DNA of 64,000 nt, from NCBI RefSeq assembly GCF_003019035.1, contig NZ_CP027447.1. One strand, given 5' to 3'. The stretch is from Escherichia coli. GTDB taxonomy: Bacteria; Pseudomonadota; Gammaproteobacteria; Enterobacterales; Enterobacteriaceae. Made by a program: the position numbers. Positions 11,501 to 14,500 of the stretch are shown here, in pieces (position 1 is the first letter of the stretch; each line of letters opens with the position of its first letter).

Positions 11501-14500
11501 ATGCCAATCTGTACTAAAAGGGTAGTCAGAAAAATCAGAATAAATAACTTTGGCAATATCGGCGCACTGGCACCAATAGCTCGAAGCGCACTGACTCTCT
11601 GACCCGCAGACACCAGCTGGATAATTAATATTACGCCTCCGGCGAGAATGGCGTTACCGATTAATCCTGAAAAAGTGGACGCCGCTGAAGCCTGCAGCAA
11701 AATTTGTTGCTGTTCAGGTGACATATTCTGAACCAGGTCGAACAACCCACTACTGCCGCTAACGGGCACGCCGTCATTGAGCTGCGCAAGCTGTGCATCA
11801 CTGGGTGAGAAAACATGCCCTAACACCACTGTGATAAACGCACATAGCAACGATACCAACAGAATGGTCATAAATTGATTACGGAAGAAATTTCCGGTGT
11901 CACGGTATACGGACTGCGCCGTGATAGACATGCACTCTCCTTGAGTTTTATGCAGGTGTTAATTAGCGGGCAATTGTACCCTGGTTAAGCCTCGGGTGGC
12001 AGCATCAGGTCTTGTATGGAAAAGCATATCTTTGTAAAGCGGAGGTAATAGCTGGCCTTCAGGCGTGGGCAAACCGCGGCAAGTGGCGAGCGAGTTAATA
12101 TTTGCGTAGCGAAAATATTTAAAAATTGATTTAAATCACATTAACCAGGATTCTCAATGCAACTTCTAAATTAATCCAGATCAATAAAGGGTGAATTACC
12201 ATATGTAATGTGATCTGTGTAGGATCATTTGTTACCCCAATGTGGGTATATTCGTCACGTTTTTATAACCATAACGACGGAGCGGATATGAAAAAGTTAA
12301 CAGTGGCGGCTTTGGCAGTAACAACTCTTCTCTCTGGCAGTGCCTTTGCGCATGAAGCAGGCGAATTTTTTATGCGTGCAGGTTCTGCAACCGTACGTCC
12401 AACAGAAGGTGCTGGTGGTACGTTAGGAAGTCTGGGTGGATTCAGCGTGACCAATAACACGCAACTGGGCCTGACGTTTACTTATATGGCGACCGATAAC
12501 ATTGGTGTGGAATTGCTGGCAGCGACGCCGTTCCGCCATAAAATCGGCACCCGGGCGACCGGCGATATTGCAACCGTTCATCATCTGCCGCCAACACTGA
12601 TGGCGCAGTGGTATTTTGGTGATGCCAGCAGCAAATTCCGTCCTTACGTTGGGGCAGGTATTAACTACACCACCTTCTTTGATAATGGATTTAACGATCA
12701 TGGCAAAGAGGCGGGGCTTTCCGATCTCAGTCTGAAAGATTCCTGGGGAGCTGCCGGGCAGGTGGGGGTTGATTATCTGATTAACCGTGACTGGTTGGTT
12801 AACATGTCAGTGTGGTACATGGATATCGATACCACCGCCAATTATAAACTGGGCGGTGCACAGCAACACGATAGCGTACGCCTCGATCCGTGGGTGTTTA
12901 TGTTCTCAGCAGGATATCGTTTTTAATTCCGCACAAAAACGACCCCGTAATATACGGGGTCAATAAGGACATGGTATAAAGGGTATTATTTCTTCGCTTC
13001 TACGCCATCAGTTTCAGAGCGAATTAAAAATTTCTCAGTTGTTTGCGGAATATGCTGAATCAGCCAGTCGGCCATTTCTTTTTCCTCATTTAAAATCGCT
13101 TCGATGGTTGGAATTGAAGCTGTATCACCGGCATTTTTTGCTGCTGCTAATAGTGAGGTGTAACAGGCGATTTCAAATTGCTCGAAGACATATCCGCTAA
13201 TAGAGCCTTTGACTATTTCATCAGAAGGGAATATACCACCGATTGACTGCCCAAGCGCAGCCATTTTACTCATGGAATCTTTAATGACTGAACGTGAAAT
13301 GTCATTACGATCAAGAATAGTTTCCAGTTGAACAATCTGGTTTTTGGTTTCACTAAGATGTTGTTCAATACGAGCGCGTAGTTCAGGATAATTATCTATA
13401 CGGCTGGCCATGGATTCAAGCATAGATTCGGCTTGCTTTTCCATTGCATGGGCGTCACGTAACCAGTCATGATAATGTTCAATACGATTCATGAAAATGT
13501 CCTCTTTATAAAATGACTAAAAGTTAAAGTTCATATTTCAGGCTTTATTTTCGGCTTTCTTATTTACGTTATTAAGGGCCAGATCAGTCAGTTTGATGTC
13601 GGTGGCCTTTTCTTCTTCAAGAGTTTCTTTCAGAAGCTTAGCTGCTTTACGGTAACCTAATTGTTCAGCCAGCGTCGCTAATGTCCCGTAACTGGCAATC
13701 TCATAATGCTCGACTTTCTGTGCTGCGGCAATCAGTGCGACATCACGCACTTCGTTTTTCTCGGTACTTTCGATGACCTCATTAGCTTCTTCAATAAGAC
13801 CTTCCATTGCCACACAATTTTTCGTTTGATGTTGCTCTTGCGAGTTTTGCCAGTGCACGGGTTAATTGTTTTTCTGCACTGTAGGTATCTGAAAGCAGGT
13901 GAATAAATACATCTTCAATGGTCTTCATATTCATATTTTTCTCCAGTGAAATCACTGCGAGCCATACGGCCCGCAGATGCAATTATCTTTATCAGCTGAT
14001 ATTAATAATTAACGGTGAATCAGGATTTTCCTGATTTATTACCACCGCTTTGTTGACCGCCTTTTTTACCTGCTTCGGATGCGCGTTGCGGATCATTTTT
14101 AAAATTACCGCCGCTATGCTGACCGCCTTTACGGCCTACGTCGGATGCCTTCTCACGGTCTTCGGCGAAATTTCCTGAACCACCACGATGTTCGGCCATG
14201 TTATTTCTCCCGTTGCGTTGCATTGTTTGATTAATATGAGTGTTGTGTGTTGACACTCATTAAAATTAGTCGCAAATGAGTATTAGTCAAATTAAGCGTA
14301 ACGAGAAAAAAGAGGGAAAATATATTTTGAGGAACATTCTGGATATATTAACAATTGCCTGAGGAATAAGTGACTTAGAGAAAATTATTGATTTTACTGG
14401 TGTTATGTTGCGGGATTAATTTGTTTGATTATATTACTGTTGGGCGGAAAAATGACGTAAGTTGACGTTCGACAGGGGTAAACGAAACGGTAGAAAGATA

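Follow-up and report, generated by a model that had tools for sequence, protein, structure and literature searches.

The yciGFE locus and the lesion in yciF

The window, by which we mean the whole 64,000-nt stretch of DNA analysed here, comes from the trp operon region of the E. coli chromosome. It carries oppA-F, tonB, yciABC, ompW, yciE, yciF, yciG and trpABCDE. The placing of yciF between yciG and yciE, with trpA and ompW as flanks, is shared by the E. coli genomes SCU-301, GF131, SWHEFF_69 and 2016C-3878. The yciGFE operon lies on the minus strand and opens with yciG (14020..14199; WP_096986793.1), which is intact and encodes a 59-aa KGG-repeat general stress protein (PF10685). Directly 5' of the yciG Shine-Dalgarno sequence is a pentanucleotide repeat, (GCAAC)2, at 14212..14221 on the minus strand. 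The number of GCAAC copies varies by strain, with two in the window and in GF131, four in three of the other loci compared (L012, L013 and L027) and five in another (L008). The final gene of the operon, yciE (12986..13492, minus strand; WP_001079500.1), encodes the 168-aa paralogue of YciF; it is intact, as a first-pass annotation of the sequence had stated, and its protein is identical to YciE of genomes in which yciF is whole. On the 3' side of yciE, a terminator-like hairpin followed by a T-run (12940..12962, minus strand), picked out by a consensus scan only, is the probable end of the operon; the promoter and terminator scan as a whole returned matches fewer than, or similar in number to, the shuffled expectation and pointed to nothing specific.

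Between these two genes, and separated from yciG by a spacer at 13935-14019, lies yciF. Its position is orthologous to that of yciF in other E. coli, with yciG on one side, yciE on the other and trpA and ompW flanking, and it is the same locus that in E. coli K-12 encodes YciF (b1258; PDB 2GS4), the DUF892 ferritin-like stress protein of yciGFE. In the window the gene occupies 13538..13934 on the minus strand, with the native start ATG AAT ATG AAG ACC (MNMKT) at 13934 and the native stop at 13538-13540. The first-pass annotation had placed the right boundary at 13982; a mechanical TTG-initiated ORF begins there, and the correct value for the gene is 13934. Its description of the gene is otherwise borne out: it had noted a conserved N-terminal part that runs into a stop after seven out-of-frame codons, a C-terminal part displaced to the +1 frame, and a locus of 397 nt that is roughly 100 nt too short for the K-12 protein of about 166 aa. 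Read from the native start, the frame yields 40 native residues (M1-L40), then CGNGRSY and a stop, so that the N-terminal stub ORF (13791..13934, minus strand) ends at 13791 and comprises 47 aa in all. The C-terminal remnant (13538..13816, minus strand) comprises codons 75-166 and the stop; with respect to the start codon its conserved sequence, CVAMEG...KAENKA, falls in the +1 frame, as simple coordinate arithmetic confirms (13934-13858 = 76; 76 mod 3 = 1). The reference protein of K-12 is truly 166 aa (PDB 2GS4) and is not naturally short.

The alignment that had been proposed as a check was run against the intact 501-nt yciF of GF131, and defines the missing bases exactly: there is a lone 104-nt gap, no further indel, and otherwise five substitutions. 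Nucleotides 120-223 of the intact gene (or 119-222, given a microhomology of 1 nt, T) are gone at a junction that lies at 13816..13817. Codon 40 is thereby joined out of frame to codon 75, and the 34 residues S41-K74 are deleted. Compared to K-12 YciF, the window is without 104 nt, or codons 41-74 plus a frame offset of 2 nt, and a 166-aa protein is impossible; what is left is nevertheless almost unchanged, since residues 1-40 are identical to those of 2GS4 and residues 75-166 differ only at A101V and I155L. Many genomes with an intact yciF likewise contain the stretch that forms the C-terminal remnant without a single difference. This absence of further decay in the remnants leads us to regard the event as recent. 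Chance is of no concern here because the lesion is a deterministic sequence difference rather than a statistical signal.

A frame-disrupting lesion with a premature stop after 47 codons is what a pseudogene should display, and the public RefSeq annotation of SCU-301 agrees: PGAP labels the segment corresponding to 13538-13928 'ferritin-like domain-containing protein, frameshifted, pseudo'. The lesion in yciF is thus already known in the sense that this annotation flags a frameshifted pseudogene. Of the explanations offered by the first-pass annotation, genuine pseudogenisation is the one supported, both by the 104-nt gap and by this independent PGAP call.

Predicted consequences for YciF

Intact YciF is a protein of 166 aa, and the GF131 allele matches PDB 2GS4 save for one residue. 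In Pfam the intact allele covers model positions 1-158 of the 159 of PF05974 (DUF892) with its residues 5-162 (E = 7e-52); the window fragments give partial PF05974 matches only, and no single polypeptide spans the whole domain. NCBIfam has no YciF or YciE model, and the scan against it returned noise matches only. Helix boundaries were taken from a single-sequence AlphaFold model of intact YciF, a low-confidence model (pLDDT 59) that we used for this purpose only, which predicts helices at residues 6-34, 38-59, 67-91, 95-111, 117-127 and 130-165. These are consistent with the known four-helix ferritin-like bundle. Placed on this model, the deletion would take most of the second helix (helix B), the crossover loop and the beginning of the third helix.

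The closest guide to what this might mean for activity comes from Salmonella Typhimurium, where YciF (PDB 4ERU) is an orthologue (E = 7e-87) that has been shown experimentally to be an iron-binding ferroxidase (bioRxiv 10.1101/2023.01.20.524870). The same study assigned Q54 to metal site M2, E113 to site M1 and E143 to a bridging role, and found that the Q54A, E113Q and E143D proteins no longer retained iron and were impaired in ferroxidase activity and in protection against bile and ROS. All three residues are conserved in intact E. coli YciF. In the window allele, by comparison, Q54 is deleted together with its helix, and E113 and E143 survive only in the untranslated +1-frame remnant, so there is no complete di-iron site. 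Because Q54 falls within the lost S41-K74 segment and the corresponding Salmonella mutant is defective, we infer a loss of function and regard the window yciF as a presumptive null allele, by analogy with the mutagenesis of the Salmonella orthologue. With most of helix B, the crossover loop and Q54 missing, neither fragment would be able to form a di-iron ferroxidase, and both ferroxidase and iron-binding activity are predicted to be absent from the window product.

Because codons 40 and 75 are joined out of frame, translation from the native start ends after a 47-residue stub, and the remaining 92 codons are left in the +1 frame, where no ribosome-binding site is evident for them. In stationary phase, carriers would probably lose the YciF share of iron sequestration and of peroxide or bile tolerance. 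The expected drop in protection against iron and peroxide is modest, being partly covered by the intact paralogue YciE. It may be that expression of yciE is itself lowered by polarity, because approximately 300 nt upstream of it are now untranslated. The first-pass annotation had called yciF an RpoS-regulated stress gene, in agreement with the literature: PMC7705038, citing Beraud et al. 2010, gives the yciGFE operon as sigma-S dependent and under McbR/YncC and H-NS control. The operon has also been linked to H2O2 tolerance in APEC (PMC12419081).

Carriers of the allele and alternative readings

The closest strain is SCU-301 (NZ_CP051751.1), which differs from the window by a single base, at 16977, over 50 kb. 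It is a natural isolate from the rectal swab of a healthy student and belongs to phylogroup F, ST967 (PMC11251922). A 40-mer spanning the junction was found in just one of the 5,426 complete RefSeq E. coli genomes, namely SCU-301, and every other complete genome that has the locus carries the extra 104 nt; across the adjacent 10 kb, the nearest other complete genome reaches only 98.5% identity. Among public assemblies at large the allele is far better represented. Independent assemblies in NCBI, ENA and Logan record the exact 47-aa product on 173 contigs, which are indexed in 210 blocks, and the 89-aa C-terminal ORF on 186 contigs from the same three sources. An exact look-up of the 106-aa GTG-initiated C-terminal ORF in public assemblies gave no record, because gene callers take the 89-codon ORF that starts at an ATG inside the C-terminal remnant (13538-13807, minus strand).

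Six of these loci were checked at the DNA level: SRR12584071 and SRR24464880 (both Logan), GCA_002474725.1, GCA_029534915.1, GCA_040131905.1 and GCA_964301485.1. All six have the same deletion allele, as seen from the junction 40-mer itself in three of them (L003-L005) and from alignments that run gapless across the junction in the other three (L018, L020 and L021). Their identity to the window is 99.98-100% over 6-9 kb including the junction, and the contig from GCA_040131905.1 is 100% identical across 8.8 kb. The carriers differ from one another at single positions (11142, 15535 and 16977). The lesion is therefore reproducible in independent sequencing and is heritable, as a pseudogene should be.

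Three readings compete with a natural null allele. One is that 104 nt were dropped from a real 501-nt yciF during assembly or polishing, and the presence of the junction in a single complete RefSeq genome could, taken alone, resemble such a one-off error. Against this, the junction and the exact product recur on 173 contigs from independent projects and assemblers, whose sources span Logan unitig assemblies of SRA runs, NCBI Pathogen Detection, ENA and Japanese collections; the flanks of the carriers are near-identical yet not identical; and the loss of 104 nt from non-repetitive sequence is atypical of long-read or polishing error. We consider such an artefact to be so improbable that the assembly error raised by the first-pass annotation can be set aside. 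An engineered or laboratory-derived deletion, which that annotation had also entertained along with a deletion private to one strain, is if anything still harder to credit. The clean look of the deletion is all that speaks for it. Its carriers were isolated from nature, come from different sources and were deposited by many submitters; the junction bears neither an FRT or lox scar nor a cassette or restriction-site remnant; and the deletion is out of frame with ends that lie within codons, unlike designed knock-outs. That the same allele appears in the assemblies of many unrelated groups argues for a heritable allele of a natural clone, not one private to a single strain, and against both of these origins. 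It is also very unlikely that the split gene still works, whether as a 47-aa stub together with a C-terminal product of 89-106 aa, or as a fusion made by ribosomal frameshifting. Both pieces still match PF05974, the ATG of the 89-codon ORF overlaps the end of the stub by 17 nt so that coupled re-initiation is conceivable, and the remnant shows no further decay. However, no frameshift, whatever its precision, could bring back the 34 deleted residues, and most of helix B and the Q54 ligand are among them; neither internal start of the remnant, ATG or GTG, has an evident Shine-Dalgarno-like sequence in front of it; and all the other genomes checked have one continuous 166-codon ORF, which means that there is no conserved recoding site. 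The lack of decay in the remnant can be put down to the youth of the clone, its carriers being only single SNPs apart. A programmed frameshift or recoding gene was likewise rejected, the site being unconserved and 34 codons being physically missing.

We thus conclude with high confidence that yciF owes its inactivation to a genuine internal deletion of 104 bp, inherited by the clonal lineage that contains SCU-301 (phylogroup F / ST967). This finding describes a lineage of commensal and environmental E. coli (an ST967-type clone) that is without one of the two paralogous DUF892 ferroxidases of the RpoS regulon. The junction offers a simple PCR or k-mer marker for the clone; this is the chief value of the finding, which has little significance beyond it.

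Origin of the deletion and losses of yciF elsewhere

With regard to how the deletion arose, intact yciF contains the 9-nt sequence AAAATTAAG twice, at gene nt 114 and 205, as a perfect direct repeat that would be available for slipped-strand deletion. We rejected this route, as the 9-nt repeat predicts a loss of 91 nt and not the observed 104, and the junction itself has a microhomology of only 1 nt. Deletion mediated by a hairpin was also rejected: the DNA fold of the deleted segment is modest (-14.8 kcal/mol) and its stem does not bracket the breakpoints. The 1-nt microhomology and the unused 9-nt repeat point to an illegitimate joining event rather than classical repeat slippage.

A further feature of the junction is that it lies at or near a switch in ancestry. 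When compared to a set of ST457-like phylogroup F genomes (four loci, with SWHEFF_69, 2016C-3878, 1517k and KOr019 as the named genomes), the window shows only six SNPs across 10357-13816, and the final 1.1 kb of this tract (12700-13816) is free of them. SNPs resume at 13839, 13860, 13887 and 14010 and carry on across trpA-E, where the divergence is 2-3%. Many genomes match the 831 nt on the left of the junction at 100%, whereas the best match to the 784 nt on its right is 98.7%, and that to the 174 nt adjoining the junction on this side is 99.4%. The left side is thus a 3.5-kb tract near-identical to ST457-like genomes, and the trp-side haplotype has no close match among the 5,425 other complete genomes. 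Other E. coli also have the SNP states seen on the right, which therefore represent polymorphisms imported by recombination rather than new mutations. From the contrast in SNPs between left and right we infer an ancestry switch at or very near the deletion; the nearest SNP on the right is approximately 22 nt from the junction, and the switch point is bounded only to 12699-13839.

This leads us to consider whether the deletion was linked to a homologous-recombination event, a proposal that concerns origin only and is compatible with a genuine deletion inherited by the clone. Such a link could take either of two forms. An imported fragment might have been joined illegitimately at its end, creating the deletion (homology-facilitated illegitimate recombination in natural E. 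coli); alternatively, a pre-existing 104-nt heterology might have kept a later import tract from extending past this point. The SNP-free stretch that gives way to SNPs from 13839 onward, the perfect matches found elsewhere for the left side as against 98.7% at most for the right, the right-side SNP states held in common with other E. coli, and a junction that ignores the available 9-nt repeat in favour of a 1-nt microhomology are all in keeping with it. On the other hand, the switch is placed near the junction by SNP density on one side only, within the bounds given above; many such switches occur throughout the 50-kb region, which is mosaic, and the chance of a coincidental switch within ~200 nt is estimated at roughly 5-10%; the comparison genomes were partly picked by their C-terminal protein allele, a choice that favours similarity on the left; and no pre-deletion relative was found by which to order the events. 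Given the loose bounds, the mosaic region, the biased comparison set and the missing relative, we hold a link to recombination to be a tentative proposal and, on balance, a doubtful one.

The pre-deletion ancestor was sought by way of the reconstructed intact protein, the YciG allele of the clone and its TrpA allele, and none of the three look-ups produced a close relative. They led to nine contigs with an intact yciF, whose trp side is 1-3% divergent at the DNA level; we rejected these as close relatives, since what they share with the clone are protein alleles only. Regardless of its cause, the coincidence of the deletion with an ancestry switch provides a small natural example that may help in the study of recombination tracts that end at indels.

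The loss of YciF is by no means peculiar to this clone. The yciGFE operon is wholly absent from about 700 of the 5,426 complete E. coli genomes (~13%), in which ompW adjoins trpA (as in L006) or prophage-type DNA occupies the site (as in L007). In these genomes the function of YciF is likewise lost, but with it the whole operon, whereas the window keeps yciG and yciE. A look-up of another truncated product, a 105-aa C-terminal ORF, returned 194 contigs. Behind this product are four independent lesions (L023-L026): two IS1 insertions that differ from each other, and premature stops near codons 35 and 59 that leave the length of the gene unchanged. Across other lineages the independent yciF alleles thus comprise nonsense, frameshift and IS1 types. 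The outcome in these other inactivated alleles is the same as in the window, a broken yciF next to an intact yciE on many contigs; the lesions are different and independent, and none has the 104-nt deletion junction. We conclude that yciF is an expendable and often lost stress gene of E. coli, and that the present case is one of ordinary gene decay.

Such losses matter when stress phenotypes of YciF are to be interpreted or when yciF is used as an RpoS reporter, and one published qRT-PCR primer falls within the segment deleted here. Lesions also occur in the neighbouring paralogue: yciE is frameshifted in GF131, and is split in one other genome.

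Ancestry and clonal position of the deletion

Sequence ancestry changes sharply at the junction of the 104-nt yciF deletion (13816/13817), as judged over positions 10357-14400 of the window. To the left of the junction the sequence is nearly identical to that of ST457-like genomes, and not one SNP separates them in 12700-13816. On the right-hand side the window diverges by 1.5-3% from every one of the other 5,425 complete E. coli genomes.

Within the clone that carries the deletion, comparison of the window with the RefSeq sequence of SCU-301 revealed a sole difference over 50 kb, at position 16977 in trpCF (minus strand, codon 326). 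Here the window has G, as compared to the C found in SCU-301, in two other deletion carriers (L018 and L021) and in the two outgroup contigs with an intact yciF (L019 and L022), and the resulting change from GTG to CTG replaces Val with Leu within the TrpF half of TrpCF. A further carrier, GCA_040131905.1 (L020), matches the window exactly over 8.8 kb, position 16977 included, and on the basis of this identity we place the window as a sibling isolate or a sub-branch of the clone.

Loss of a primer site and other inactivations of yciF and yciE

The published yciF qRT-PCR primer rt-yciF-f (GCTTTTCATGCGCACCTC; PMC12419081) lies over its whole length inside the 104 nt deleted here, which correspond to nt 120-223 of the intact gene. 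This assay would show no yciF transcript in the deletion lineage.

In other E. coli lineages (L023-L026) yciF has been independently inactivated four times. Two of the lesions are premature stops, one near codon 35 and one near codon 59, and the other two are different IS1 insertions. All four lesions retain the same 105-aa C-terminal ORF, and 194 contigs on record carry this ORF. In GF131 a frameshift has also made a pseudogene of the paralogue yciE (L002, region 3101-3705), and in GCA_977064965.1 (L011, 3547-4052) yciE is broken into ORFs of 73 aa and 95 aa.

Variability between ompW and trpA and around yciG

The yciGFE cluster is wholly absent from approximately 13% of complete E. coli genomes, for instance Z135-3 (L006) and 23CRST044 (L007); the site corresponds to window 12927-14579. 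In some of these ompW directly adjoins trpA; in others the site holds tail-fibre genes of prophage type together with a VapA/VapB-family gene and what is left of ompW. The stretch between ompW and trpA is thus a variable region or integration hot spot. A gene for a YkgJ-family cysteine-cluster protein has left a short remnant between yciC and ompW (window 11959-12050), which is annotated as a partial pseudogene and was found in every genome inspected; 23CRST044 has a full-length copy of the gene adjoining prophage DNA.

The yciG 5' untranslated region contains a (GCAAC)n pentanucleotide repeat (14212-14221, minus strand) immediately 5' of the yciG Shine-Dalgarno sequence. The window and GF131 have 2 copies, three other genomes have 4 and SWHEFF_69 has 5; this repeat could modulate yciG translation or the structure of the leader. 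CFSAN061771, FDAARGOS_1285 and 98203 measure 1035 nt as compared to 1005 nt over the interval containing yciG (window 14020-14199), and the additional 30 nt, in or near yciG, possibly represent one further KGG-type repeat unit.
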